NCBI GenBank assembly: GCA_043799405.1 | Contig: JAZDNT010000002.1 | Span: forward strand, 235,320 to 299,319 | Length of the DNA: 64,000 bases | Origin: Candidatus Kerfeldbacteria bacterium | GTDB lineage: Bacteria > Patescibacteriota > Patescibacteriia > SBBC01 | Direction of reading: 5' to 3' | Shown: positions 48,567 through 63,620 of the stretch, one piece after another | Position numbering within the stretch: the stretch's first letter is position 1 | How the letters are laid out: the number at the start of each line of letters is the position of its first letter | Position numbers and translations under genes: made by a program | The notes under the pieces: model-generated | What the model was told of the DNA's origin: nothing | The model's input: only the letters and a program-made list of their open reading frames with translations | Database searches by the model: none

Positions 48567-51500
48567 ATGGTAGGCAGTACACCACAACGTCGAGTGCTCC
48601 GATCCGCCCCCCGTGCTTTTCCGCGGTGGATTGCGCAGAGCGTTCCAGTGCGTATCCTTGCTGGCGTCGCAGCGCTTCTCTGTGTTATGGCTGCGCCATC
48701 GAGCGGCCGCGCCGGTGATTTTATTAAGATCGGATCCCCGGTTGCGACGCCGGTGAACCTCTACGCTGTTACCGCCGTATACGATGCTTCGCCAACAGTA
48801 TACGAAGCGTGGGCTGTCGGCGAAGAGCTCAATGAAAACGGCTCTACTCCCGCGGAAACCGAACGAAGGGGAATCATTCTCCACTTTACCGGTTCGTTCT
48901 GGACGCGTGTTTCGTTCGATTACAACATTCCGCCGCTTCGGGGCATAAGCGCTGTCCGGGTCCTCCGTACCCAATATCCAAACGGTACCGCGCGAAAACC
49001 GGCCTGGGCGTCGGAAGCCCTCGCAGTTGGGGATAAAGGAACGATGGTTTTCCTCGATCCCTACTCAGAAGCGTGGAGGCTGCTGAAGAAGCATGAACCG
49101 GCAACGCCCGATTTCCCGTCTGAGACATCAAAACGACGAAGCTGTACGGAATTTGAGATGAAGACCCAGGGAGATACGTGCATTGATTGGACATCGAAAG
49201 ACCTTCTTGCTGTCGCAATCGTTGGTCCGTCGAACTCGCGACCCATGATGATCGGGAAGCAGGGCGGAGTGTTCCAGATCAATTCCGAATTCTTCGACCT
49301 CGGCAATGGTCAGGGCAGGGGTTTGTATTTAGGCATTGAGAATGACGGGCCTGAGTCAACCGCAGAACGCTGGGTTCCTGGCAACAGCACCAGCGTCGAT
49401 CTTACGGCACTGTATTTCGTTGACGCAAACCATGGCTGGCTTGTTGGCAAAGATAATGATACGGGTCATGGAAAGGCGTGGAGATATTTAAAACAATTCA
49501 TTGAGATTGCCCCTCCTGCCGGGGGGTTCGAACCTCTTACGAGCGTTGCGGGAACGCTCCGGTATACTGCGAGTACGCCGCCGCCAGAAGTGCCGGAGCC
49601 GCTCAAGGGTATTGCATGGTTCGGGGCGGAATCGGGGAAGATATACCGGTATGACGAGGGGAACGACAGCATTATCGCTCGTGTTTCTGGTTCCTCGCCG
49701 ATCCGTTCGCTTACGGTTACGAGACGCATTGGGGGTCGGACTGCCAACCTAGCAAAGAACAGTACGTTCAATGCCGACTTACTCCAAGGGGGGCCGAACT
49801 ATCGGCCTGACGGATGGGTACCGTCTGGAGAATACTGGAGCGCAGCGGGTACCAGGGAAAACCCGCGGATTATGCTTCCTTCCGCGCTTGTATCCGATCC
49901 TGGCGATACGACGCCAACGTACCCGCCAAATCCGGGCAATAAGGTTTATGTCGCCGAACCGTGGCAGTCGCTCTGGCCCTGGGCTCTACCCGATCTCGAT
50001 GGAACAGTCTATAGCGCATTGGGATGGTTCGGTAGTTCTACGGAGCCGAGTCATTACCCTGTCTTTAATTTATACGGCGGCTACGGGGCAGCCATGAAGA
50101 TACGGATCGACAGAGAAAGCCCTACGAATAATGATGTATCCCAGGCATTGCTTCCGGGTCTGTCACTTATTGCCGCATACCAGAGTTTTTGGCATTACAT
50201 GTATCCTGGTGGTGGGGCTCCCTTTCTCGGAGCAGATATCCCCGGGTACATACGGATTGACCAGAAATGTTCTGGCGGTTCGGAGAACGGGAAGATCTGC
50301 AGTAATTTTAACGGAGGTAATGTTGTAACGACGAAATCTTGCGTAGATGGCGAAGGAGCATGCATCAATCCTCAGTATCAGTTCCGCGTTATCGCTCCGA
50401 ACGGTCGCGTTGAACTGTTCATCGATAATGACGACAATACCCAGAACCGCTGCAGTAACAACACTGCAAAATCATGTATTGCCGATGTCGACTGCGCCGG
50501 ATATCTCTGCGTAGATCCGAACAACTCAAGGTTGCCGCTATCAATCGGCTATACAACAACGGCTAATGCGCTCAGCGCATGGCAGGTAGGCAGCTGCAAG
50601 AACCTCGTTCGGAAGACCTGCAACCGCGGCGATAATGCAGGGCAGCTCTGCGAAGACAATGTATTTTGTCAGCAAGGCTATAAGGTTTGCAGTAATACGG
50701 GAGAGCGATGCTACACAAACGCAGACTGCGAAGACCCTGATAACCCCGAAAATCCGGGCATCTGTAGGCAACCTACTGCACCGGATTTGCCGCAGTGCGT
50801 CGCAGATACCCCTAAGGGATGTTTTGATGATGCGAACTGTAAGGTCGGAAGCTGCCGCGGTAACACCGGGACCTTCTGTTACACCAATAACGATTGCAAT
50901 ACTCAAACAACCGATGACGTCTGCGACCTCTGGGGTATTTGTGCGAGCGGAAAGGTCGGTAAGCCGTGCCACGCGTCGTTGGATTGCGGCGTTAACGGCG
51001 TATGCGAGCTGTCAGGGAACGGATTCTGCGAGAACGCTTCGCCGACGGGTATCGCAGAACCGAGGAACGCGGTCACCTTTGGGGGTAAAGGAATTTTAGG
51101 CAAGCAGTGCGTAAAAAATGACTATACAAAGGAGATCGGTGCGTACTGCTTCGACAATTCGCAGTGCGGAGACGGATGGAGCTGTCAGATTGTCCGTTCA
51201 GGGTGGTTCCCGTTCGCGTTGAGGTACTACCAGCTCAACGCAGCGCGTTGCAATGCGACGAATCCGGCTTACGCGCTGCCGTGCATCGACGATACGATCT
51301 GTACTGTCAGCAATCGCAGATCCGGGGGGAAATGCAGCGCGGGAAAGTGGTGCATTGGCGGGGCGACATGCAGCAGCGGCACCCAGAACGGCTTGCCGTG
51401 TACGGATATTGTTGGCGGTACCGGTTGCGCAGGGGGGACCTGCGTACCGTCCGGGAACAACGGCTCCATCTGCAACAGCGACTCGGACTGCACTGCAGGG

Positions 51501-54500
51501 ACTGGAGCAAGGTGCGTTCTGCAGTATAAACCGGCACTACCAGATCAAGACAGTAATCCAACACAAAGGCCAGGCTGGTGCTCGAACGACACCGCTATTC
51601 CCTGCTGGGTATCGAACGAATGCAGTAAACCAGGAGGTACCTCGGGTACGTGCGTGTTTCCGGAAAAGTACACTGATTCGCAGGGAGCGAAGCTGATCTT
51701 CCAGTGGAAGGTGGACGGCGGTTCCTGGGAGGGAATACCAGCGGATCACCTGGTATTCAATCAGAAGGCATCGGGGAACGCGACGATCATACAGGATATT
51801 CCGCTAACGAACATCCCGGGAACGACCTACCAGGTAACGGGCAGGTACAAGGTCGAGTTCCTCGATAACTTCAAGGCGTACCAATCGAGCGATTCGCGCA
51901 ATCCTTTCGTTACGGAACAACAGGCCTATAAACCGCACGCAGGGGTTAGGATTCAGTGCAGTGTTTCCAGATGGAACTACAATGATTGCGGGTATGACAT
52001 CAACACGCTGACAACAGACTACGCAAGCGGCGTGACAGGCAACAAGCGCTGCTCGAAAGACGCGAGGATCCTCTGCAGGGATTCGTCTGAGTGTGCCGCG
52101 CAGAACGCGGGATCCTGTACGACTACTGTTGCCGGCGCATGCAGCGGGAACCCAACCATATACTGCAGCAACAATGATGTGTGTACAGCGAAAAACGCCG
52201 GACGCTGTATTGGCGATTGGATCCCGTTCAATGTAACGATCTCGAAACAGAATCGCGATCCAGAGGGGATACGGCTTCTGCAGGAATCAGTACACTCGCT
52301 GCAAGTCGTATGTCAGGCAGACGTCGGAACGCGTGTATTTTGCGATGACATTACGGTGACGCAGGTCAGCAGCGCGGCATCAGAGGGGTTCGACACGGTT
52401 GATGTCCTTGCCGTCGGCGATAGCGGGGCAATGCATCGAAGCACCTTCGACATACGAGACGCGGATCCCAACAGTATGTATGACAACTGGCAACAGCAAA
52501 CGTCGCCGATCGCCAGTGCAGACCTGAACTCAGCGTTCGCTACTGATCCGTTCCACTACTGGATCGCGGGTAATTATTCCGGAATCCAGACGGAGAAGGC
52601 GTCGCTCATGACGATGAATCCGGGCAACGTAAGCGGCTGGGCGTGGGTCGGCGCTGCAACGAAGAGCGGAACGGATATCGCGAACGATCCGATGGGCTGG
52701 ATCGACTTTAACTGCGGGAACCTCGGGACCTGCCTTTCACAGCCGTCATCGTTCGGCGTCAATATCAGCGATCCTACGGAAGAGGGGGTCTGCAGCAATG
52801 ACGTATCGAGGTCCTGTAGCGCGACGAATCCATGCAGTGCAAGTAATAAGTGCCTCGGCTTCATAACCGGCAGCGCGTGGGTCGGTAATCAGGATCCGAA
52901 CGAGCTGTTTAATCTCGGTCCTTGCTCAGTGAGTACAACTGACACGTGTCGTTATGGGCAGTGCACGAATGCATCATCCCGTGTCTGTGCGCAAAATGGG
53001 CAATGCATGGGTACGTGTGCGCTGAACCAGGGATTCAAGTGCTGGAGGGATGCCGACTGTAAGGTGAGCTGCGCAACGAACCCCGTCGCCTGCAGGTCGT
53101 CCGGCTGGCTGTCGTTCGACAGGGCGATAACCGGAGATCCGCCAGTAGGTCCGTATAGTGGTCCTTACAATTCAGGGCTACAGTTGGATACCCCGCTCGC
53201 AACGTTCGACAAGGATACTGACCAGCTCTCCGGATGGGGAAGGTTCCAGTTCGGGATATGTTCGCACGACGAGAAACTAAGCTGCTTCAAGGATTCCGAA
53301 TGCGGCACCGGACATACCTGTACGTACAAGAGCGCAGGCAGCTGGACCACCTGCATGGCGACTTACAACGACGTGACTATCTGCAACAGCAGGATGGGGT
53401 GGATAAAGCTCACCGGTAATACCGACAACATGCCGATACCGCACGACTACGATTACCTCATGTGCATGGACTGCACGTACGCAGAATCTACTTCAATGCC
53501 GAATGATAATGAAAGTAAGGCAAAAAGTACGTGCAAGATATGCACGCGGTATGATAAAGCATTAGGTACTCCGATGCCCACGGACAATTCATGCAATAAC
53601 TGTACGAAATGCACTCTTAAGCGCTGTACCGGGGATGCGAACTGGTACTGCAATGTGGATGCTGAGTGTATAAGCAACAATATAGGACTCTGTAAACCGT
53701 TCGGATGGAACGCAACGATGCAACAATACTGCTTTGACATGAACACGAATACGCAGTGCGTTCCTGGTGCGCGGTGTACGACGTGTACTACCTGCAGCGA
53801 GTACGGCGTATCCGTCGACTTCGGAGATACCAAGCTCTTTAACGGCTACGCGTACAGTCCCGATGTCGGATGGATAAAGTTCAACAAGGTCATGATCGGC
53901 GGAAAACAGTACGTCCAGACGCAGCTCGGCGACATCTACTCTGGGAAGGACATCGGGAGCACGAAGACCTCGCGTCCGCCGGGCTTCCCCGGAGGCTCGG
54001 GATCGAGCACGAACCTGTGCAACGCGACGTACCGGATCATCGCCGCGGGTAAGATTGAGAACTTCTGCACGAGCGCTCCAAATACCGGCTCCGGCACCGA
54101 TCCGTTCCAGCTGCAGGACGCGCCGCTCTTTCCGCTGCCGTCGATCGAGAACCGCTACGTAACCCAGATAGGCACGATCGACATGGACGGCATTGCAAGC
54201 GTCGCGAAGACGACCGAAAAAGATGGCGTAACGTACAAGTACAATAAGTTCGGGGATAGGATCATCGAAGGGGCAACCGATGACGTCAACTTCAGCTCCT
54301 TCTTCGGCGGGCCCGGCTGCGGAAGCGGCGAAGCCTGTCCCGTACCATTAAAGGGTCAGGTGTTCTATATTGAGGGCAACCTCACGATCGATGAACCGCT
54401 ATTCAGCATAACATCTGGAGTACCTACACCCGCCTACGGTGTAAATGCCTTCCAGAGCGGCGCCGGTACGTTCGTGGTCGGTGGCGATCTCATCATCAAC

Positions 54501-54851
54501 GGCAATATCGAGTACGAGATGGAGAACACCCTACAACAGCGCGTTCAGCTGCCGTCGATCGCTTTCCTTGTGAAAGGTGACATTACCATCAATGCAACGT
54601 CCTCGTCCCTTAAGGGCATGTTCTACACGCCGAATACGGTCGATGTACTGTCCAGCGAGCCTGACCTGCAGCTGACCGTCGGCGGAGCTATGGTCGCGAA
54701 GAAGTTCAACTTTAACAGGAAGTACCGAGGACCCCTTTCAATAGAGCCATCAGAACGGATCATTTACGACGGAAGGTTGCAAGCAAACCCTCCGCCGGGA
54801 ATCTCGACGTTCGCAAGCGGGCTTATGAACATCGCGGAGTTTGCTCAGTAG
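48567..54851 (+). CDS. Giant (2094 aa) secreted Cys-rich protein with beta-propeller-like segments and a beta-helix-like C-terminal domain
   Basis: Signal-like ILAGVAALLCVMAAPSSG (an alternative GTG start is near 48648). Propeller-like WAVGE/LAVGDKG/WLVGKD blades. A Cys-rich region of about 1100 aa with C..D.DC....G.C units. The C-terminus reads GQVFYIEGNLTI...FVVGGDLIINGNIEY...AFLVKGDITINATSSSLKGMFYTPNTVDV. Confidence 0.85.
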   Translation: MVGSTPQRRVLRSAPRAFPRWIAQSVPVRILAGVAALLCVMAAPSSGRAGDFIKIGSPVATPVNLYAVTAVYDASPTVYEAWAVGEELNENGSTPAETERRGIILHFTGSFWTRVSFDYNIPPLRGISAVRVLRTQYPNGTARKPAWASEALAVGDKGTMVFLDPYSEAWRLLKKHEPATPDFPSETSKRRSCTEFEMKTQGDTCIDWTSKDLLAVAIVGPSNSRPMMIGKQGGVFQINSEFFDLGNGQGRGLYLGIENDGPESTAERWVPGNSTSVDLTALYFVDANHGWLVGKDNDTGHGKAWRYLKQFIEIAPPAGGFEPLTSVAGTLRYTASTPPPEVPEPLKGIAWFGAESGKIYRYDEGNDSIIARVSGSSPIRSLTVTRRIGGRTANLAKNSTFNADLLQGGPNYRPDGWVPSGEYWSAAGTRENPRIMLPSALVSDPGDTTPTYPPNPGNKVYVAEPWQSLWPWALPDLDGTVYSALGWFGSSTEPSHYPVFNLYGGYGAAMKIRIDRESPTNNDVSQALLPGLSLIAAYQSFWHYMYPGGGAPFLGADIPGYIRIDQKCSGGSENGKICSNFNGGNVVTTKSCVDGEGACINPQYQFRVIAPNGRVELFIDNDDNTQNRCSNNTAKSCIADVDCAGYLCVDPNNSRLPLSIGYTTTANALSAWQVGSCKNLVRKTCNRGDNAGQLCEDNVFCQQGYKVCSNTGERCYTNADCEDPDNPENPGICRQPTAPDLPQCVADTPKGCFDDANCKVGSCRGNTGTFCYTNNDCNTQTTDDVCDLWGICASGKVGKPCHASLDCGVNGVCELSGNGFCENASPTGIAEPRNAVTFGGKGILGKQCVKNDYTKEIGAYCFDNSQCGDGWSCQIVRSGWFPFALRYYQLNAARCNATNPAYALPCIDDTICTVSNRRSGGKCSAGKWCIGGATCSSGTQNGLPCTDIVGGTGCAGGTCVPSGNNGSICNSDSDCTAGTGARCVLQYKPALPDQDSNPTQRPGWCSNDTAIPCWVSNECSKPGGTSGTCVFPEKYTDSQGAKLIFQWKVDGGSWEGIPADHLVFNQKASGNATIIQDIPLTNIPGTTYQVTGRYKVEFLDNFKAYQSSDSRNPFVTEQQAYKPHAGVRIQCSVSRWNYNDCGYDINTLTTDYASGVTGNKRCSKDARILCRDSSECAAQNAGSCTTTVAGACSGNPTIYCSNNDVCTAKNAGRCIGDWIPFNVTISKQNRDPEGIRLLQESVHSLQVVCQADVGTRVFCDDITVTQVSSAASEGFDTVDVLAVGDSGAMHRSTFDIRDADPNSMYDNWQQQTSPIASADLNSAFATDPFHYWIAGNYSGIQTEKASLMTMNPGNVSGWAWVGAATKSGTDIANDPMGWIDFNCGNLGTCLSQPSSFGVNISDPTEEGVCSNDVSRSCSATNPCSASNKCLGFITGSAWVGNQDPNELFNLGPCSVSTTDTCRYGQCTNASSRVCAQNGQCMGTCALNQGFKCWRDADCKVSCATNPVACRSSGWLSFDRAITGDPPVGPYSGPYNSGLQLDTPLATFDKDTDQLSGWGRFQFGICSHDEKLSCFKDSECGTGHTCTYKSAGSWTTCMATYNDVTICNSRMGWIKLTGNTDNMPIPHDYDYLMCMDCTYAESTSMPNDNESKAKSTCKICTRYDKALGTPMPTDNSCNNCTKCTLKRCTGDANWYCNVDAECISNNIGLCKPFGWNATMQQYCFDMNTNTQCVPGARCTTCTTCSEYGVSVDFGDTKLFNGYAYSPDVGWIKFNKVMIGGKQYVQTQLGDIYSGKDIGSTKTSRPPGFPGGSGSSTNLCNATYRIIAAGKIENFCTSAPNTGSGTDPFQLQDAPLFPLPSIENRYVTQIGTIDMDGIASVAKTTEKDGVTYKYNKFGDRIIEGATDDVNFSSFFGGPGCGSGEACPVPLKGQVFYIEGNLTIDEPLFSITSGVPTPAYGVNAFQSGAGTFVVGGDLIINGNIEYEMENTLQQRVQLPSIAFLVKGDITINATSSSLKGMFYTPNTVDVLSSEPDLQLTVGGAMVAKKFNFNRKYRGPLSIEPSERIIYDGRLQANPPPGISTFASGLMNIAEFAQ

Positions 54852-54953: not shown

Positions 54954-56072
54954 ATGGCATTGTTTAAAGGAGGCAAGGGGAGTTACCTCGGTATTGATAT
55001 TGGTACATCGAGCGTTAAGTTCGTGGAGCTCCGGAACGAAGGAGGCAGACCGAGGCTTTCGACCTACGCGTTTGTTGAGCGCCCGACGAACATGATCAAG
55101 ATCGATTCCGCCCAAGAGCAGGCGCAGGTATCAGCGGCGCTCCGCGATCTCGCAAAAAAGTCACACGCAACGGTCGATCGCGTCATCGCAGCGCTCCCGA
55201 GCTTTGCCGTGTTCTCTTCGATCGTCAGTCTTCCCGTCATGCCGAGGAAGGACCTCTACGCAGCTGTCCGCTGGGAGGCGAAGAAGTTCGTTCCAATGCC
55301 GATCGAGGAAATGGTCCTCGACTGGCGTCTCCTAAAGGAGAATCCGGCGACAGGGATCCTTATGGGCATTGAAAAATCCGGCGCCGGAAGCGAAACGAAA
55401 GAAGGCAAGGAGGAGCGTGGGCCGAAGAACCTACGGGTGCTGCTCACCGCTGCCCCGAAGAACCTCGTGAAACGCTACATAGACATTTTTAAGAACGCGG
55501 GACTGAAGCTCCTGAGCCTCGAGACAGAATCGTTCGCGCTCGAACGTTCCCTTCTCGGCGGCGAGCCGGGTATTTTCATGGTCGTCGACATCGGCGCGAT
55601 CGCTACGACGATTACGGTCATCGTGAACTCCATTCCGCTCATCAACCGATCGATAGACGTCGGCGGCGAGACGATCACCAAGGCGATCGCGAACAGCCTC
55701 AACGTCGATACGCAGCGCGCGGAGCAGTTCAAACGCGATATCGGAATGGGCATACAGGAGGGCGGAGCGAGCCAGATACCCCGCGCTATCGAGTTCGTCA
55801 TCAATTCCATCGTCAATGAGATACGGTATGTAATGAACCTCTATCGCAACCAGGCGGACAAGCCTGTCGAAAAGGTCATCCTCGCCGGTGGATCGTCGTT
55901 CCTCATAAACCTCCCCGAGTACCTCTCAACTACATTGAACATGAAGGTCTTCATAGGCGATCCATGGTCAAGGGTCGTGTACCCCATTGATCTGAAACCC
56001 GCGCTCGACGAGATCGGACCGCGGTTCGCGGTCGCCGTCGGACTCGGGATGAGAGAGATCGTAAGCACGTAG
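54954..56072 (+). CDS. pilM: Type IV pilus assembly protein PilM (actin-like ATPase fold)
   Basis: GIDIGTSSVKFVEL phosphate-1 motif, VVDIGAIATTI, and the length and order typical of PilM. Confidence 0.9.
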   Translation: MALFKGGKGSYLGIDIGTSSVKFVELRNEGGRPRLSTYAFVERPTNMIKIDSAQEQAQVSAALRDLAKKSHATVDRVIAALPSFAVFSSIVSLPVMPRKDLYAAVRWEAKKFVPMPIEEMVLDWRLLKENPATGILMGIEKSGAGSETKEGKEERGPKNLRVLLTAAPKNLVKRYIDIFKNAGLKLLSLETESFALERSLLGGEPGIFMVVDIGAIATTITVIVNSIPLINRSIDVGGETITKAIANSLNVDTQRAEQFKRDIGMGIQEGGASQIPRAIEFVINSIVNEIRYVMNLYRNQADKPVEKVILAGGSSFLINLPEYLSTTLNMKVFIGDPWSRVVYPIDLKPALDEIGPRFAVAVGLGMREIVST

Positions 56073-56082
56073 CGTAACGCAT

Positions 56083-57348
56083 ATGCCCGACATCAACCTC
56101 TTAGCAGACACAAAGGGCACCGAGAGCAACGGGAAACCGAAGAAGGTTCCTCCGCTGCGGATCGAGTACTCGAAACCGGAGGACAGGAAGGGGGTCGACC
56201 GGCCCCTCACAAAACCATCAGGCATCCTGCTCTGGTTTAGGTCGTTGTTTACAAGGAAACCAGGAGGGAAAAAGGTTGTTCCTCCGAAACCGAGAGAGGT
56301 CGTTCCAAAGTTCGGTAAGCTCACGAAAGAACCTGAGGACATTTTTGCGAACCTCGAAGCGCCCGAAATAGTCCTCATGCAACGGCGCTCATCCGATCAG
56401 GGGAACGGGGTGTCTCCGCGCGGCACAAGGATCACGCAGGAACCAGCGGGATCGAGCGGAGGCGTCCGTCCGCAGCAACAAAAGCCGCAACCGACGGTCA
56501 CTACGCCACCCGAACCGATGATCGAGGGAGGACCCCTCCGTATGCCGGCAGCGCCCCGCATCGTACCTTTTAAACCCCAGCAGCCGATGAGCGCTCCAGC
56601 AGTTACACCTCTTAAACCCCAGCAACCAGTTCAGCAACTGAGGCGGGAGCAACAGCGAGGACCAATGCCGAAGCCGGAGAAAAAGAAGGGAGCAGAAGCG
56701 GAATATACCGAAGAATTCGAGGGAGTTAACCTTCTCCCCGAAGAAATGGTCACGACGTTCAATCCGAAGAAGAAGCTGACGACCGTGGGCCTTGTTGCGC
56801 TCGCTACAGCGCTGTTCGTTGGGATCGTCGACGTTTCGCTTGTGCTCTGGAAGGATACGCAGGTCCGAAAAACAGACGAGAAACGACAGGAAACCGATCA
56901 GGTTATTGCGAAAATAAAAGCGCTCGAACCCGATCAGCAGAAAGCGATCGCGTTCAAAGCGCAGAACGACGTCATGCGTATGCTCCTCAATAACCATACG
57001 TACTGGACGAAATTCCTTAGTCTCTTCGAACGGTATACGCTTCCTACTGTGTACTACGCAGCCGGAATTCAAACGAGCATCGGTTCGAACCTTTCATTGA
57101 CCGGCAGCGCGCCGGACATGGAAACGATACTCGAGCAGCTCGCGCTGTACCAGAAGGCGCCGGAGTACATCAGTAGCGTTTCGATCAACACCATAACCCG
57201 GCAGCCGAAAGAAAGCGGATTTTCATTCATCGTCGATCTGTCCTTCAATCGCAATGCCTATTATATGCCCATCGATGTCGCCGCTGCAGCGAACACAAAT
57301 GCGCCGACGGCGCAGCCTTCCTCAACAACGACAGGGGGGTCCCTATGA
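56083..57348 (+). CDS. pilN: PilN-like protein with a Pro/Gln-rich N-terminal extension of about 210 aa
   Basis: VNLLPEE lies just before the single TM helix (LTTVGLVALATALFVGIV), followed by a coiled-coil/ferredoxin-like ectodomain. A second INLL motif sits at residues 4-7 (MPDINLLAD). Confidence 0.7.
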   Translation: MPDINLLADTKGTESNGKPKKVPPLRIEYSKPEDRKGVDRPLTKPSGILLWFRSLFTRKPGGKKVVPPKPREVVPKFGKLTKEPEDIFANLEAPEIVLMQRRSSDQGNGVSPRGTRITQEPAGSSGGVRPQQQKPQPTVTTPPEPMIEGGPLRMPAAPRIVPFKPQQPMSAPAVTPLKPQQPVQQLRREQQRGPMPKPEKKKGAEAEYTEEFEGVNLLPEEMVTTFNPKKKLTTVGLVALATALFVGIVDVSLVLWKDTQVRKTDEKRQETDQVIAKIKALEPDQQKAIAFKAQNDVMRMLLNNHTYWTKFLSLFERYTLPTVYYAAGIQTSIGSNLSLTGSAPDMETILEQLALYQKAPEYISSVSINTITRQPKESGFSFIVDLSFNRNAYYMPIDVAAAANTNAPTAQPSSTTTGGSL

Positions 57349-58058
57349 AGATGCCCTCCTACATCCAGAAGATTTACGCAAGCCTTCTTACCCAGTACTT
57401 CCGCTATATACTGATCGCCGTCTCGGTCCTTATCGCAGCCGTTGGTTACCTCGTACTGATACAGCCGCAGTTCGAAAACGTCAAGGACGTCGGTATTCTT
57501 GCCCTAAAGAACGAAACAGATAGACTGAACGACCGTCAGGCGTACCTTCAGCGCATGACCGCAATGGTCGAGAAGTACCGTGCAGCCGCTTCGGGCCAGA
57601 CGGTAAGGGCGGAAAATATGCTTCCGACCGGGATCGATAACGCGGCGCTCTTCCGTACCATGCAGGCGATCGCAAGCCAGAGCGGGATGATGCTTCAGTC
57701 TGTCGCTCTGAACAAGACGGCCGGTTCAACCGGAACGGGCACTGCCGCAGGGGACGCAACGCAGGGGACCGATGTATTGTCCAAAATTAGCGAGACATTG
57801 AGCTCGACAGGTTCTGTAATAAGGGCAAGTACCGTTAGCGTGTCTTTAGCGGGCGACGGTAGTTACGAGACCTTTAAAAGGGTGCTGACCACTATCGAAC
57901 AGAGCGTGCGGTTGTTCGATCTCAGTACGATAAACTACTCATCATTATCATCGGGGCCGCAGCTCGTCGGGAAGACCGAACAAGCTCAGGCGCTGACAAA
58001 CTACTCCTTCGAGCTGAAAACATACTACCTAGAACCGATAAGTGCCCAGGCGAAATAA
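57345..58058 (+). CDS. pilO: PilO-like bitopic pilus alignment protein
   Basis: ATGA overlap with pilN. One TM helix (ILIAVSVLIAAVGYLVLI), a coiled coil, then NMLPTGIDNAALFRTMQAIASQSG. Confidence 0.6.
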   Translation: MKMPSYIQKIYASLLTQYFRYILIAVSVLIAAVGYLVLIQPQFENVKDVGILALKNETDRLNDRQAYLQRMTAMVEKYRAAASGQTVRAENMLPTGIDNAALFRTMQAIASQSGMMLQSVALNKTAGSTGTGTAAGDATQGTDVLSKISETLSSTGSVIRASTVSVSLAGDGSYETFKRVLTTIEQSVRLFDLSTINYSSLSSGPQLVGKTEQAQALTNYSFELKTYYLEPISAQAK

Positions 58059-58070
58059 TTCGATACTACT

Positions 58071-58373
58071 ATGGCCCTCGTCCAAAAACGCGATACAAGA
58101 AAGAACGTAGTCTACCTGGCGCTGCTCGGTGTTGCCGTCGCCGGGGGCATTGTCGCGCTCTTCTTTTTTAAGCCAAAAGGAAGCACCGTTGATACAACGA
58201 ACACCAGCTATGTAAAGGGGCGCGATCAGCCGACCTACACAACGTTCGGAGAGGACCTGTACGAAAGTGAGCAGTACAAACAGCTGCGCGACTATCTTGA
58301 AGGTTCGACCCCGATACAGCCCACTAACGCCAATACTTCTCAGGGCAATCCGAACCCGTTCCGTTCTCAGTAA
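58071..58373 (+). CDS. Small bitopic membrane protein (100 aa) in the pilus operon
   Basis: TM helix VVYLALLGVAVAGGIVALFFF. Compact spacing to both neighbours. Confidence 0.55.
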   Translation: MALVQKRDTRKNVVYLALLGVAVAGGIVALFFFKPKGSTVDTTNTSYVKGRDQPTYTTFGEDLYESEQYKQLRDYLEGSTPIQPTNANTSQGNPNPFRSQ

Positions 58374-58378
58374 GAACC

Positions 58379-60148
58379 ATGCCACCGACACAAAACACCA
58401 CAAATCAAATCAGTCCCGAAACGACGCTCCTCGACCTCCTCCTCGCCGACAACCTGCTTTCACGAGAGCAGGTTGATGCGCTCGTTGCAGAGAGCAAGAA
58501 AAGCCAGCAGCCTGTGAACGAGCTGCTTGAAACAAAGAACCTTGTCCGCGAAGAGGATCTCGTCCGGGAGAAGAGCAAGCTCTACAACATCCCCTACATC
58601 GACCTGTTCGGGCGCGTTGTCCGCGGCGAGGTCTTGAACGTCATCGAGAAGGAGCTCGCCGAAAACTACCGCATCGTCGCCTTTAACAAGAGCGGCGACG
58701 AGCTGTCGATCGCAATGGTCGACCCGTCCAATTTCAAAGCGCTCGAAGCGATCGAGTTCATCGCAAGGAAGAGCCATTTCCGGATCAAGTACTACCTGAC
58801 GTCAATATCAAGCCTTCGGTACGTCATCCGTCAGTACGAGAGCCTCTCAGCCGAGGTTGAGGAAGCGCTCAAAGGAGCAGAGGAAGAGAGCGAGCTCCAG
58901 AAAGCGATGCTCAAGATCGAGGAGGAAGGGTTCGAGGAGGTCGTAAAGACCGCGCCGGTATCGAAAATGGTGTCCGTCATACTCCGCCACGCCGTTGAGG
59001 GAAAGGCGTCCGATGTGCACATCGAACCGGTCTCGGACGAAACGCGCGTACGGTTCAGGGTTGACGGCATCCTCCATACATCCCTCGTCCTGCCGAAGAA
59101 CGTCCACCAGGCGATCGTTGCGCGCATCAAAGTACTTTCGAACTTGAAGATCGACGAGACGAGGATCCCGCAGGACGGCCGGTTCCGTATGGTCATCGAG
59201 GGTCGTGACATCGACTACCGCATCTCGACGCTCCCGCTCGTTGCTAACGAGAAGGTCGTGATGCGCATCCTCGACACCTCAGCGAGCCTTACGCAGCTCG
59301 ACACCCTCGGGTTCGATGGGAAGTCGCTCGAGGCGATGAAGGAAAACATCAGTAAATCGCACGGCATGTTCCTCATCACCGGTCCGACGGGATCAGGAAA
59401 GTCGACGACCCTCTACGCGCTTCTGAACCTCCTGAACGAGGAAGCGGTGAACATCGTAACGCTCGAGGACCCGGTCGAGTACTTCATGAAAGGCATCAAC
59501 CAGTCGCAGGTGAACTCCGAGGTCGGGCTTACCTTCGCCGCGGGTTTGCGCTCCATCCTGCGCCAAGATCCGGACATCGTCATGGTCGGAGAGATCCGCG
59601 ACAACGAGACAGCCGAGCTCGCCGTACACGCCGCGCTCACCGGTCACCTCGTGTTCTCGACGCTCCACACGAATGATGCATTCGGTGCCGTACCGCGTTT
59701 GATCGACATGAAGATCGAACCGTTCCTCATCGCTTCGTCGTTGAATGTCGTCATGGCCCAGCGTCTCGTACGTCGCGTCTGTCCCTACTGCTCGAAGGAG
59801 CTACACGTCCCCGAGACGCTCGAGAAAGAGGTTCTCGAGGAAATCGGGCGCGTCCCGAAAGGCAATATTCCAGGCGACGTGAAGGTCACGGCGCCGCTGA
59901 AATTCGTCCGCGGGCAGGGCTGCGTCCGTTGCGAGAACACCGGCTACAAAGGCCGCGTTGCGATCGCTGAGGTGCTCGCGGTAACTCCCGAAGTGCAGAA
60001 GATCATCGTTTCCGGAGGCAACATGATCGACGAACTTAAAAAGACGTTTATCGGACAGGGCATGTTCTCTATGCGTCAGGACGGTATTTTTAAAGCGCTC
60101 CGCGGCCTGACCACTGTCGAGGAGGTCTGGGACGCGACGAGGGCGTAA
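58379..60148 (+). CDS. pilB: Type IV pilus extension ATPase PilB (GspE family)
   Basis: Walker A GPTGSGKSTT, EDPVE, Walker B IVMVGEIRD, His box TLHTND, and the tetracysteine CPYC...CVRC. Confidence 0.92.
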   Translation: MPPTQNTTNQISPETTLLDLLLADNLLSREQVDALVAESKKSQQPVNELLETKNLVREEDLVREKSKLYNIPYIDLFGRVVRGEVLNVIEKELAENYRIVAFNKSGDELSIAMVDPSNFKALEAIEFIARKSHFRIKYYLTSISSLRYVIRQYESLSAEVEEALKGAEEESELQKAMLKIEEEGFEEVVKTAPVSKMVSVILRHAVEGKASDVHIEPVSDETRVRFRVDGILHTSLVLPKNVHQAIVARIKVLSNLKIDETRIPQDGRFRMVIEGRDIDYRISTLPLVANEKVVMRILDTSASLTQLDTLGFDGKSLEAMKENISKSHGMFLITGPTGSGKSTTLYALLNLLNEEAVNIVTLEDPVEYFMKGINQSQVNSEVGLTFAAGLRSILRQDPDIVMVGEIRDNETAELAVHAALTGHLVFSTLHTNDAFGAVPRLIDMKIEPFLIASSLNVVMAQRLVRRVCPYCSKELHVPETLEKEVLEEIGRVPKGNIPGDVKVTAPLKFVRGQGCVRCENTGYKGRVAIAEVLAVTPEVQKIIVSGGNMIDELKKTFIGQGMFSMRQDGIFKALRGLTTVEEVWDATRA

Positions 60149-60171: not shown

Positions 60172-60573
60172 ATGGCAAAAAAAACAACGCACGATATAAC
60201 GGGGAAGCCGAAGATACTCGTCGTCGAGGACGATTCGTTCCTCGCCGGCATGTACCTAACGAAGTTCGGGATCGAGGGATTCGATGTCGAGCTCGCTTCG
60301 GACGGAAAAGACGGGCTCAAGAAAGCGAAGGAATGGAAACCAGACCTTATACTCCTCGACATCGTTCTGCCCGTCGTCGACGGATTCACCGTGCTCGAAA
60401 AGCTCAGGGTAGACACAGAGGTGAGGGGTATTCCTGTCGTGCTGCTGACGAACCTCGGGCAGAAGAGCGACGTCGAGAAGGGCTTGAGCTTGGGGGCCGC
60501 CGACTACCTCATCAAAGCCCACTTCATGCCGAGCGAGGTCATTGAAAAGGTGAAACGGCTCTTACGGCCGTAA
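60172..60573 (+). CDS. Stand-alone CheY-like response-regulator receiver
   Basis: ILVVEDD...DLILLDIVLPVVDG...PVVLLTN...GAADYLIKA. 133 aa with no output domain. Confidence 0.9.
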   Translation: MAKKTTHDITGKPKILVVEDDSFLAGMYLTKFGIEGFDVELASDGKDGLKKAKEWKPDLILLDIVLPVVDGFTVLEKLRVDTEVRGIPVVLLTNLGQKSDVEKGLSLGAADYLIKAHFMPSEVIEKVKRLLRP

Positions 60574-60579
60574 ACGACG

Positions 60580-61659
60580 ATGCAATCAGGCGCCTCAATC
60601 AACCTTCAGCGGATCCTAACGACCGCAGCGGAGTACCGCGCGAGCGACCTTCACTTTACCGTCGGGAATCCGCCGATCCTCCGCGTTGACGGAAAGCTCG
60701 TCGTACTCGAGCAGGAGCAGGTCGTGACGCCGGACTTCATGGATTTGGTCGCGGAAATGCTCTTGACGAAGGAGCAGCGCGCGCAGCTCGAGATCGACCG
60801 CGAGATCGTCGTCGCCTTTACGCTCGAGAACAAGATACGCTTCAAGGTTTCAATGTTCTTCCAGCGCGGATTTTTAGCAGCCAGCTTACGCCTCATCTCG
60901 AACGAGATAAAGTCCCTGAAGGACCTCGGACTTCCGAACGTCGTCGAGAAGTTCGCACTGCTTACGAAAGGCCTCGTGCTCGTGACCGGTCCGTTCGGGT
61001 CCGGACGCACGGCGACCGTCGCCGCGCTCGTCAACGAGATCAACAAGATGAGGACAGCGCACATCATAACCATCGAGAAACCGATCGAGCACCTCTACAT
61101 CAACGACCGCAGCTTCATCGAGCAGCGCGAGGTCGGGCGCGATACGAAGTCGTTCAAACAGGCGCTTGAAACGGCGAGCCGCGAGGACGTCGACGTCATC
61201 GTCGTTTCGGAAATGGAGGAACCGGACGTCATCGAATCCGTGCTTACCGCTGCAGAATCGTCGAGGCTCATCATCTCCTCGATGAACACGGATTCGGTCA
61301 TAAAGACGATCGAGATGATCATAACGAACGCGCCTTCCGAGTACGAGGTGAAGATAAGGACGCAGCTTGCCGGCACGCTGCAAGGCGTCGTCAGCCAGCG
61401 TTTATTACCGAGGATAGGCGGCGGGCGCATCCTCGTTGCAGAGGTTATGGTGCTGAGCCCGGCGATACGCGCGGTGATCCGAGACGGAGCCCTCTACCAG
61501 CTCCAGAACATCCTCCACACATCGCGGGAAGAAGGCACGATCTCTCTCGACAGGAGCCTTGCCGAACTCGTTAAAACCGGTGAAATCCTTTTGGACGATG
61601 CGCTCATGTACGCAAACGATCCCGGAAACCTAAAAGCGCTCGCACGGGCGCAGGATTAG
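60580..61659 (+). CDS. pilT: PilT-like hexameric ATPase homolog with degenerate catalytic motifs
   Basis: PilT-like throughout (ASDLHF..G.PP..RVDG; REVGRDT.SF). However, Walker A is GPFGSGRT (Arg codon CGC at 61006-61008), the Asp box is EKPIE, Walker B is VIVVSEMEE, and the His box is SMNTD. Confidence 0.85.
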   Translation: MQSGASINLQRILTTAAEYRASDLHFTVGNPPILRVDGKLVVLEQEQVVTPDFMDLVAEMLLTKEQRAQLEIDREIVVAFTLENKIRFKVSMFFQRGFLAASLRLISNEIKSLKDLGLPNVVEKFALLTKGLVLVTGPFGSGRTATVAALVNEINKMRTAHIITIEKPIEHLYINDRSFIEQREVGRDTKSFKQALETASREDVDVIVVSEMEEPDVIESVLTAAESSRLIISSMNTDSVIKTIEMIITNAPSEYEVKIRTQLAGTLQGVVSQRLLPRIGGGRILVAEVMVLSPAIRAVIRDGALYQLQNILHTSREEGTISLDRSLAELVKTGEILLDDALMYANDPGNLKALARAQD

Positions 61660-61670
61660 AAGGCTGATGC

Positions 61671-62906
61671 ATGGCAACATTTGAATACAAAGCGCGTGAC
61701 CTTGAGGGAAAGGAAACGGCGGGAATCGTCGACGCCCCTTCGGAGCAGGTCGCGCAGGACGTCATGAAGGAAAAGGAGCTCGTCCTCATCTCCCTCAAGG
61801 AACGGAAACGGATGACGCTGTTCCAGTCGTCGTTCGGTTTCCTGAACCGCGTCCCACGGAAGGACGTCGTCATGTTCGCGCGGCAGCTCGCCGTCATGAT
61901 CTCGGCGACCGTCCCGATCGTGCAGGCGCTCCGCATCCTCGTAAAGCAGACGGACAACGTCAACTTTAAGATCATCATCTCCGAGATCGCGGACGAGGTC
62001 GACGGCGGGGCGAAGCTCTCGGCGACGCTCGCGCGCTACCCGAAGGTGTACTCGCAGTTCTTCATCCATATGGTACGGTCCGGCGAAACGACGGGTAAGC
62101 TCGACGAGACGCTGAACTACCTCGCCGACCAGCAGGAAAAGGACTACGACCTCGTATCGAAGATCAAGGGAGCGATGATCTATCCCGTCTTCGTCGTCGG
62201 CGGCATGGTCGCCGTCGGCATCGCCATGATGGTGTTCGTCATCCCGAAGCTCACCGAGGTTATCGAGGGCAGCGGCGGGAAGCTCCCCTTGAGCACCCGG
62301 TCGCTCATCTGGATATCGGACTTCATGGTGAACTCGTGGTGGGTCATCGTGGTCGTCGTTGTCGGTCTCATCGTCATTTGGAGAACGTACTCGCGTACCG
62401 CCGTCGGGAAACGCCAGCTGGATCTCATGATGATGCGCTTCCCGATCTTCGGCCAGATATTCCAGAAGATCTACCTTGTCCGTTTCTCCCGATCGCTCTC
62501 GACGCTCGTCGTCTCCGGCATTCCGGTGACCCGTTCGCTCGAGATCGTCGCGGACGTCGTCGGGAGTACGCTCTACCATGACCTAACGAAGCAGGCGATA
62601 AAGGAGATCGAAGCGGGGAACTCGATCGCGACCGCGTTCGTAAAGAGCGAGGATATCCCGGCAATGCTCCCGCAGATGATGATCGTCGGCGAGCAGACGG
62701 GAAAGCTCGACCTCGTGCTTGAAAAGCTCGGAAATTTCTTTGCGAAAGAGCTCGACAACATGATCGCGAACCTTACGTCCCTCATCGAGCCTCTCATTCT
62801 CGTCGTCATGGGCGTTGCAGTCGCCATTATGGTCATGGCTGTGCTCCTTCCTATGTACAACCTTTCAGAGACAATATCGTGGATTCAGGGCATTTTCCTT
62901 GCGTGA
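61671..62906 (+). CDS. pilC: Type IV pilus platform protein PilC (GspF family)
   Basis: Two T2SS-F repeats, three TM helices, and a typical N-terminus (MATFEYKARDLEGKETAG). Confidence 0.92.
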   Translation: MATFEYKARDLEGKETAGIVDAPSEQVAQDVMKEKELVLISLKERKRMTLFQSSFGFLNRVPRKDVVMFARQLAVMISATVPIVQALRILVKQTDNVNFKIIISEIADEVDGGAKLSATLARYPKVYSQFFIHMVRSGETTGKLDETLNYLADQQEKDYDLVSKIKGAMIYPVFVVGGMVAVGIAMMVFVIPKLTEVIEGSGGKLPLSTRSLIWISDFMVNSWWVIVVVVVGLIVIWRTYSRTAVGKRQLDLMMMRFPIFGQIFQKIYLVRFSRSLSTLVVSGIPVTRSLEIVADVVGSTLYHDLTKQAIKEIEAGNSIATAFVKSEDIPAMLPQMMIVGEQTGKLDLVLEKLGNFFAKELDNMIANLTSLIEPLILVVMGVAVAIMVMAVLLPMYNLSETISWIQGIFLA

Positions 62907-62928: not shown

Positions 62929-63089
62929 AATGAAGAATACGGTTGTGGATAATTCCTTTATCAATAGCTCGTTTGTGTGAATTAACCTCGTCGTAAAAAA
63001 GCTTGTCGTGCAGCTCCGGCAGTACACGTGACTTCCGAAGCGGCAAACAAATATAAACGACGAAAACCTGAAAGGGGGTGACGAAACAA

Positions 63090-63620
63090 ATGAACAATCA
63101 GAAAAAAGGATTCACGCTCATCGAGCTGCTGGTCGTCATCGCGATCATCGGTATTTTGTCGACCATCGGTCTCGTCGCCCTCAACGGCGCGCGGGGCAAG
63201 GCTCGCGACACGCAGCGCATTTCGGCGATCCGCCAGTACGCGCTCTCTATGCAGTCGTATGGTGATTCGACGAATACCTACACTCCGACCTGTGCCTTTA
63301 CTGATGTAGGAAGAGTCGCTCCGGATTGCGCCGATCTCCAGGCGTTTTTCGGCGGCAACTACCCGCATGATCCGCAGTACGTTGCAGCAAATCTTGCGAT
63401 GACTCCAAATGCCGCTTGTGACTCTTGGATAAATACTGCCTGTGTAGCTCCGGCAACCCCGTATACGTACACGACTGGTGATGACTACACCATCATGTAT
63501 GGTGCAGCAGCAACAAGTGATGCGACTGGCTATGCCATCGGAATCAATTTCGAAACCGGTGCTGGTGGTGTTGCAAAAGGTGTCCATTACCTTGACGCAA
63601 CTGGAAAGTGGAAGCCATAA
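63090..63620 (+). CDS. Type IV pilin (major pilin candidate)
   Basis: Class III signal MNNQKKG|FTLIELLVVIAIIGILSTIGLVAL. An AAGGGGG Shine-Dalgarno lies upstream. I prefer the ATG at 63090 over the track GTG at 63078. Confidence 0.9.
   Translation: MNNQKKGFTLIELLVVIAIIGILSTIGLVALNGARGKARDTQRISAIRQYALSMQSYGDSTNTYTPTCAFTDVGRVAPDCADLQAFFGGNYPHDPQYVAANLAMTPNAACDSWINTACVAPATPYTYTTGDDYTIMYGAAATSDATGYAIGINFETGAGGVAKGVHYLDATGKWKP

Follow-up and report, generated by a model that had tools for sequence, protein, structure and literature searches.

A PilT-family protein of Candidatus Kerfeldbacteria, encoded in a type IV pilus operon, whose non-canonical nucleotide site is conserved

PilT is the textbook retraction motor of the type IV pilus, and both the lysine of its Walker A motif and the histidine of its His box are regarded as universal in the PilT/VirB11 family. 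The subject of this text is a PilT-like protein in which both have been replaced. It is encoded at positions 60580–61659 of a stretch of 64,000 nucleotides from Candidatus Kerfeldbacteria, a lineage of the Patescibacteria (assembly GCA_043799405.1, contig JAZDNT010000002.1, positions 235,320 to 299,319); this whole stretch is referred to below as the window, and all features described in it lie on the forward strand. Few surface machines are conserved in Patescibacteria; type IV pili are one of them, and a central part in attachment to hosts and in the uptake of DNA is ascribed to them. A broad survey of these bacteria lists PilT merely as present (PMC6744442), and the PilT of Saccharibacteria is stated to have normal ATP-binding and hydrolysis sites (PMC12206443). 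A full-text literature search, with subscription journals outside its coverage, found no description of a PilT with altered catalytic motifs in Patescibacteria.

The working interface of canonical PilT has been described in structural terms by McCallum et al. 2019 (PMC6858323). At the closed interface, H230 contacts T221, T221 contacts T133, R195 contacts D161 and residue 164 contacts R81. The pairs H230–T221, T221–T133 and R195–T133 are evolutionarily coupled across 30,421 homologues, and H230 is conserved throughout the PilT/VirB11 family. These authors proposed a proton relay leading from the catalytic glutamate to H230, then to T221 and T133, and P. aeruginosa PilT carrying the H229A substitution loses twitching motility. 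In PilB of G. metallireducens (GmPilB), E357 binds Mg, E395 is the catalytic glutamate and H420 contacts the gamma-phosphate (PMC5424180).

Canonical hydrolysis is not the only state in which PilT has been studied. An ATPase-dead PilT is still functionally important in Vibrio cholerae if PilU is present (PMC6821130), and a preprint reports that pili retract slowly and weakly without PilT (bioRxiv 10.1101/497933). In Xanthomonas, a regulator made only of receiver domains binds both PilB and PilT (PMC13507683).

The PilT-like protein and its nucleotide site

The open reading frame (ORF) of the pilT-like gene is intact, as an earlier interpretation made from the letters of the DNA (the sequence-only reading) had held. 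It runs from an ATG at 60580 to a TAG at 61657–61659 and encodes 359 amino acids. The protein scores 342.3 bits against the family model TIGR01420 (pilT_fam; cutoff 319.1), with residues 9–348 covering profile positions 2–341 of 343, and 80.9 bits against PF00437 (T2SSE; cutoff 24.9). An AlphaFold2 model, built on an alignment of 42 sequences and with a mean predicted local distance difference test score of 90.4, predicts the two-domain fold of an N-terminal PAS-like domain and a C-terminal ATPase domain. When this model was compared by Foldseek with G. metallireducens PilT4 (6OJY and 6OJX), the template modelling (TM) score was 0.92 and the root-mean-square deviation 1.7–1.9 Å over 348–352 columns, at 38–39% identity. 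There is no MshEN domain; the additional N-terminal domain of PilB and its zinc-binding cysteine motif are both absent. The motif AIRNLIRE is reportedly specific to PilT. Its counterpart here, AIRAVIRD (61462–61485), is the same at five of eight positions, and relatives sharing the altered site conserve [AP][IV]R[AS]VIR[DE]G where canonical PilT has AIRNLIRE. Family, fold and gene context all mark the protein as a PilT, but one whose nucleotide site is non-canonical and conserved in that form.

Any statement about altered motifs depends on their register. A phmmer alignment with Aquifex aeolicus PilT (2EWV) covers residues 7–356 with an E-value of 2e-79 and contains one single-residue gap, remote from the motifs, so that the register is secure and the substitutions in the four motifs are real. 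Mis-registration was rejected on this near-gapless alignment and on the consistency of the motif columns in 272 sequences.

The Walker A motif, or P-loop, lies at 60988–61014 and reads GPFGSGRTA in place of the canonical GPTGSGKST. Phe139 stands for threonine and Arg143, encoded by CGC at 61006–61008, for the invariant lysine of the PilT/PilU family; the glycines and Thr144 are retained. The Asp box (61075–61089) is EKPIE rather than EDPIE, with Lys167 replacing the aspartate and with Glu166 and the Mg-binding Glu170 in place. The atypical Walker B region (61192–61221) is DVIVVSEMEE, where VGEMRD is canonical: Ser210 replaces glycine, Glu213-Glu214 replace Arg-Asp, and the catalytic Glu211 is kept, so the segment DVIVVSE still supplies the atypical Walker B with its catalytic glutamate (hhhhGE). 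The His box, SSRLIISSMNT at 61258–61290, has changed from ETGH/TLHT to ESSR/SMNT, with Ser227 for threonine, Arg229 for the first conserved histidine and Asn236 for the second. In the strand pair of the N-terminal domain that carries the arginine-finger positions (60838–60891), Arg87 and Arg104 are retained and Lys89 takes the place of arginine.

These motifs are where the sequence-only reading had placed them, with the arginine codon, EKPIE, VIVVSEMEE and SMNTD all confirmed by sequence and alignment, and the motifs of PilB with which it compared them (GPTGSGKSTT, EDPVE, VMVGEIRD and TLHTND) are all found in the ORF at 58379–60148. Phe139 and Lys89 are two altered positions that its list did not contain. 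Its description of every catalytic signature as altered stands for the four named motifs, but does not extend to every catalytic residue, since the protein retains Glu211, Glu170, Thr144, all three glycines of the P-loop, Arg87 and Arg104.

The residue numbers were checked against GmPilB through an alignment with 5TSG, which carries a 20-residue tag. Glu170 is equivalent to E357, the Mg ligand, Glu211 to the catalytic E395, Asn236 to H420 and Phe139 to T327. A profile alignment maps the arginine-finger positions 89 and 104 onto R271 and R286; the equivalence of position 89 with R271 is ambiguous, as a MAFFT alignment of PilB and PilT placed position 89 elsewhere. The profile alignment is preferred because the 15-residue spacing between the two arginines is identical in PilB and the PilT-like protein. 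In relation to the numbering of McCallum et al., which is that of G. metallireducens PilT, the numbers used here are higher by 6. In that numbering, the clade to which the protein belongs replaces T133, D161, T221, H223, H230, R83 and the Walker A lysine, and retains the R81–E164 contact and L269.

The residue pattern suggests a division within the site. The parts that bind Mg-nucleotide (the P-loop glycines, a basic Walker A residue, Thr144 and Glu170) appear to have been kept, and those that couple gamma-phosphate sensing, interface closure and hydrolysis to have been replaced as a set. The Walker A lysine-to-arginine mutants of two related ATPases, RecA K72R and Rad51 K191R, are reported to bind ATP and to hydrolyse it very poorly. 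The preferred reading, to which a probability of about 0.5 is given, is that the PilT-like protein binds nucleotide with slow hydrolysis or none, and may act at the pilus platform under the control of an adjacent regulator.

Conservation, origin and selection of the altered site

For comparison with relatives, 272 PilT-type domains from homologue and representative searches were projected onto the columns of the query. Three groups were compared: 102 canonical domains, 116 close relatives (53–97% identity) and 40 distant clusters (37–48%). The altered pattern is common to about 160 relatives at 37–97% identity, and nearly all of the best 120 homologues have the same altered motifs. Among the closest homologues, the named carriers belong to Candidatus Kerfeldbacteria or the Patescibacteria group; the more distant clade members that are named belong to Uhrbacteria, Buchananbacteria and the Parcubacteria group. 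Among the species genomes of the GTDB set, the closest match, at 79% identity, is in a Kerfeldbacteria metagenome-assembled genome (MAG) from groundwater, and a scan of that set with the single protein gave one Kerfeldbacteria genome and one distant Clostridia match.

G137, G142, Arg87 and Glu170 are identical in all sequences of all three groups, Glu166 differs in a single sequence, and G140 hardly varies. The Walker A lysine (position 143) is present in all 102 canonical domains, whereas close relatives have arginine in 89% (103/116) and lysine in 11% (13/116), and the distant clusters have arginine in 23 and lysine in 15. Walker A position 3 (position 139), a threonine in 93% of canonical domains, is phenylalanine or tyrosine in 98% of close relatives; 17 distant clusters have Phe and 13 have Tyr. 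Both histidines of the His box are found in every canonical domain (102/102 each). The first (position 229) is replaced by arginine in 115 of the 116 close relatives (99%), and by arginine in 23 and lysine in 6 of the distant clusters; the second (position 236) is asparagine in 73% of close relatives (85/116), and asparagine in 17, aspartate in 8 and glutamate in 7 distant clusters. The Asp-box aspartate (position 167; canonical 97%) is Lys, Gln, Arg or Asn in the close relatives and mixed in the distant clusters. Position 210, preceding the catalytic glutamate, is glycine in 98% of canonical domains and serine in 88% of close relatives (distant, Ser 21 and Gly 10), and the arginine of GEMRD (position 213), present in 100% of canonical domains, is lost in both other groups. 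Of the arginine-finger positions, 89 is arginine in all 102 canonical domains, lysine in 95% of close relatives (110/116), and arginine in 28 and lysine in 12 distant clusters; 104 is arginine in 100% of canonical domains, arginine in 73% (85) or histidine in 27% (31) of close relatives, and Arg in 22, Lys in 7 and His in 6 distant clusters. The catalytic glutamate (position 211) is found in 99% of canonical domains and 90% of close relatives (104/116), and in 15 of the 40 distant clusters.

Thus, the distant members keep a basic Walker A residue and only a minority of them keep the catalytic glutamate, so that hydrolysis looks dispensable in the wider clade and phosphate binding does not. Nucleotide binding with weak or no hydrolysis is favoured because of these distant members without a catalytic glutamate, together with the RecA and Rad51 mutants and the H229A substitution of P. 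aeruginosa PilT.

Some of the altered positions vary together, in statistics that ignore shared ancestry. Positions 139 (60994–60996) and 104 (60889–60891) covary in the clade, with Phe/Arg in 100 sequences, Tyr/His in 30 and few mixed; this may reflect a split between sub-clades or a physical contact across the subunit interface. Positions 167 (61078–61080) and 213 (61216–61218) often combine Lys or Arg at the former with Glu or Asp at the latter (63/166; odds ratio 6, Fisher p 8e-8, uncorrected for phylogeny), which looks like a charge-swapped pair, the reverse of canonical Asp167/Arg213. A compensating swap between the Walker A residue 143 and position 89 was also considered, and strict coupling is unsupported: the 143/89 counts are R/K 110, R/R 21, K/K 18 and K/R 13.

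The same residues can be accommodated by a retraction ATPase that has been rewired and remains active. In such an enzyme Arg143 would take the role of the Walker A lysine, Arg229 and Lys89 would contact the gamma-phosphate, and Glu211 would activate water; the protein would power retraction like PilT, through an active site of altered geometry. The replacements are specific and conserved, above all at positions 229, 89 and 139, and the pairings of F139 with R104, of Y139 with H104 and of basic 167 with acidic 213 have the look of co-adaptation. Glu211 persists in most close relatives, as does Arg104 in a smaller share of them; Glu170, Thr144 and the P-loop glycines show little or no variation, a counterpart of AIRNLIRE is retained, and the gene is under strong purifying selection (see below). 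However, the same Walker A substitution greatly cuts hydrolysis in RecA and Rad51, and the catalytic glutamate has been lost in 25 of 40 distant clusters of the very same clade. A rewired, active motor is the main alternative and is considered somewhat unlikely.

The altered nucleotide site may have arisen once. After the 20 diagnostic sites had been masked, a neighbour-joining tree (without bootstrap) placed 68 of 69 altered sequences in one clade, free of canonical members, which suggests a single origin. Canonical PilTs with N-terminal extensions of 150–500 residues, often with a GPTGHGKST Walker A, are numerous (L005 1998–4145, P0144, P0154, P0162 and others); they are the sister group of the altered clade in the neighbour-joining tree, and one of them, in L005, is encoded between pilB and pilC. 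In Paceibacteria/Minisyncoccia, canonical PilT (P0286–P0404) is very uniform, the best 120 clusters all being at least 81% identical to P0133, and the altered clade is far more divergent. Several proteins of 660–1024 residues (P0121–P0128, P0152 and P0257) contain two tandem PilT domains each. In P0126 and P0152 the N-terminal copy is eroded, with GNRGSGRSC and GSSSAVTVS for Walker A and no His box, and the C-terminal copy is canonical; judged by these motifs, a dead and a live PilT domain would be combined here in an independent instance.

Deviation from consensus in all four signature motifs might also be expected of a relic, a PilT that has lost its function and is drifting. Against this, the ratio of non-synonymous to synonymous substitution rates (dN/dS) of the pilT-like gene is 0.038 in comparison with a 97%-identical orthologue and 0.12 with an 85%-identical one, values comparable to those of its neighbours pilB (0.065) and pilC (0.20). 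The ORF is intact in all relatives examined, and conservation among close relatives reaches 90% or more at 99 positions. Some 160 relatives conserve the altered residues too, and the codon for Arg143 varies synonymously among orthologues (CGC, CGA, CGG and AGG). A pseudogene or recent decay is excluded by the low dN/dS, the conservation of the altered residues and the synonymous changes at Arg143; with the selection and conservation data, the relic is already refuted, its probability being next to nil. The sequence-only reading had also taken the gene not to be a pseudogene, a view that is well supported here, and had asked whether relatives share the substitutions. They carry the same non-canonical residues, so that strain-specific decay, which is not seen, is ruled out by conservation across the clade and by dN/dS.

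The pilus operon and the identity of the gene

The pilT-like gene lies within a type IV pilus cluster. Upstream of it are pilM (54954–56072), which has a PilM_2 match, genes in the positions of pilN (56083–57348, 421 amino acids) and pilO (57345–58058), which are named from position and have no Pfam match, and a gene for 100 amino acids (58071–58373), also without a Pfam match. In the protein from the pilN position, a long low-complexity stretch rich in Pro and Gln precedes the membrane-proximal part. Next comes a canonical PilB extension ATPase (58379–60148) with PF00437 and MshEN domains, a TIGR02538 score of 577.7 bits and all canonical motifs. Between it and the pilT-like gene is a CheY-like response regulator consisting only of a receiver domain (60172–60573; PF00072, E-value 3e-21), which ends 6 nucleotides upstream of the pilT-like gene. 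Downstream are the PilC platform protein (61671–62906; PF00482 T2SSF, E-value 4e-55, two repeats) and a type IV pilin with an N_methyl motif (63078–63620; PF07963). Directly upstream of pilM lies a gene for a very Cys-rich secreted protein of 2094 amino acids (48567–54851), without a Pfam match, which may be a pilus-associated adhesin. A giant gene upstream of pilM is also found in related loci (L001 1–4450 and L003 1–4287).

The order in the window is therefore the 2094-residue protein, pilM, the genes in the pilN and pilO positions, the 100-residue gene, pilB, the regulator, the pilT-like gene, pilC and the pilin, and the part from pilM to the pilin is repeated in L001 (a 1.03-Mb contig), L003 and L010 (Buchananbacteria). 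In the locus of the Kerfeldbacteria MAG (L011), pilB, the regulator and the altered pilT are arranged as in the window. The regulator has a complete phospho-acceptor set, comprising the DD pair, the phospho-acceptor Asp in LLDI, the Thr and the Lys. In six loci, at 62–92% identity, it immediately precedes the altered pilT, and in L001 it overlaps the start of pilT by 4 nucleotides. In the Uhrbacteria locus L009 a similar cluster is found from which the regulator is absent. A protein of 137 residues (L009 7646–8059), without a Pfam match and with no convincing alignment to a receiver domain, is encoded there directly upstream of the altered pilT, so the link with the regulator is not universal in the clade.

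Five related loci contain exactly two T2SSE-family genes each, pilB and the altered pilT, and outside this pair the window has no T2SSE-family gene either. A search of the 64-kb window, and of about 10 kb around the gene in these five loci, revealed no second PilT- or PilU-type gene, which also rules out, over the same ground, a second canonical PilT nearby. This bears on the possibility that the PilT-like hexamer is a dead adaptor, one that binds to the platform and brings in a canonical ATPase of PilU or PilT type from another locus, in the manner of ATPase-dead PilT with PilU in V. cholerae. The precedent is firmly established, as PilU supports retraction in PilT Walker A/B mutants and not in a pilT deletion (PMC6821130, PMC6762196). 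In contrast, the altered pilT has no such partner at any of these loci, and the genomes are small, at roughly 0.6–1 Mb as estimated from long contigs, which makes an adaptor of this kind quite improbable.

The canonical PilT most similar to the PilT-like protein is P0133, at 45% identity, whose family is named Paceibacteria or Minisyncoccia. Its cluster comprises pilT, pilC, a pilin, a prepilin peptidase, minor pilins and a DNA ligase, with the canonical pilT just upstream of pilC. The pilT-like gene is likewise encoded with pilB and pilC, as for PilT proper. It was called a paralogue in the sequence-only reading, a label that finds no support in that form: as the sole PilT-type gene in the operon here and in the five related loci, in the slot upstream of pilC that the canonical gene occupies in Paceibacteria, it looks like the diverged PilT orthologue of the lineage and not an added paralogue.

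Elsewhere in the window, at 648–22610, is a cluster that resembles a type IV secretion or conjugation system of the Gram-positive type. It encodes a surface protein of 2003 amino acids with fn3 and purple-acid-phosphatase N domains, a TrbL/VirB6-like protein of 1212 amino acids, a PrgI-like protein, a VirB4/TraG-type P-loop ATPase and two T4SS_pilin-domain proteins, one of them fused to an SLT transglycosylase.

Possible function and comparison with known systems

If the PilT-like protein binds nucleotide with little or no hydrolysis, its hexamer would hold ATP and turn it over very slowly or not at all. In this state the altered PilT could occupy the PilC/PilM platform in place of PilB. Displacement of PilB might then either stop extension and let the pilus come apart at low force without a motor, or adjust how extension is balanced against retraction. 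The adjacent CheY-like regulator would probably control when the platform is occupied, as its gene position suggests. A PilT that occupies the platform is plausible because of the precedents of ATPase-dead PilT and of retraction independent of PilT. The ‘non-catalytic or regulatory’ role put forward in the sequence-only reading is likewise plausible, as judged from the residues of the site.

Several considerations weigh against such a role. Glu211 is retained here and in nine-tenths of the close relatives, and Arg104 in nearly three-quarters (73%) of them, which is unexpected if hydrolysis is fully dispensable. The specific replacements (Arg143, Arg229, Lys89 and Phe/Tyr139) do not resemble random drift, and a rewired active site would fit them equally well. 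Finally, competition for the platform and control by the regulator are argued from gene order and analogy.

A broader proposal can be built upon the nucleotide-binding reading. It holds that the sole PilT of a major branch of the Patescibacteria, comprising Kerfeldbacteria, Uhrbacteria, Buchananbacteria and their relatives, is a nucleotide-binding pseudo-ATPase, that retraction in this branch is not motor-driven, and that PilT and the CheY-like regulator form a switch, gated by nucleotide and phosphorylation, which displaces or reverses PilB. As a whole this proposal is unlikely. If a whole branch does have a PilT that is unable to hydrolyse ATP normally, retraction would have to be passive, to proceed via a single bidirectional motor, or to involve an unrecognised partner. 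The pseudo-ATPase, if real, would mean a natural type IVa pilus system that runs on a single active motor, in bacteria of the episymbiont type. The alternative is that the PilT family tolerates an uncharacterised active-site chemistry. In the subunit interface, which structural work has identified as the coupling point of the motor, the clade presents substitutions that vary together in nature.

Each of the known systems resembles the locus in part. The Xanthomonas regulator DrdR (PMC13507683) lacks an output domain and exerts a direct effect on PilB and PilT, and a single-domain receiver is encoded here between pilB and the pilT-like gene. However, DrdR, with its two receiver domains, stimulates canonical ATPases, whereas the regulator in the window is linked to the motors by its gene position.

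RecA K72R and Rad51 K191R carry the same substitution at the equivalent P-loop position and keep partial function. They are single engineered substitutions in another family, in contrast to the window protein, which has at least seven further conserved changes in its active site.

PilU of P. aeruginosa (PDB 9N32) shares the PilT/PilU family model and the fold (TM score 0.83–0.84). Its identity to the window protein is lower than that of PilT, at 30–31% as against 38–39%, and the window protein has a counterpart of AIRNLIRE. PilU also differs in having canonical catalytic motifs and an ATPase activity that is required for retraction (PMC6821130).

The engineered ATPase-dead PilT proteins of Vibrio cholerae and Acinetobacter baylyi, mutated in Walker A or Walker B, demonstrate that a non-hydrolysing PilT can matter at the pilus machine (PMC6821130). 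They are laboratory mutants that require a neighbouring PilU, whereas the altered state in the window is natural, ancient and clade-wide, with no PilU-like gene nearby.

The closest likeness is to canonical PilT itself, as represented by G. metallireducens PilT4 (6OJX/6OJY), Aquifex PilT (2EWV) and P. aeruginosa PilT (3JVV). The window protein shares with these the family model, the length, the two-domain fold and the slot beside pilC, as well as an AIRNLIRE-type motif, the catalytic glutamate, the Mg-binding glutamate, Arg87 and Arg104. It departs from them at the Walker A lysine and threonine, the Asp-box aspartate, GEMRD, both His-box histidines and position 89, all of which are 93–100% conserved in the 102 canonical domains.

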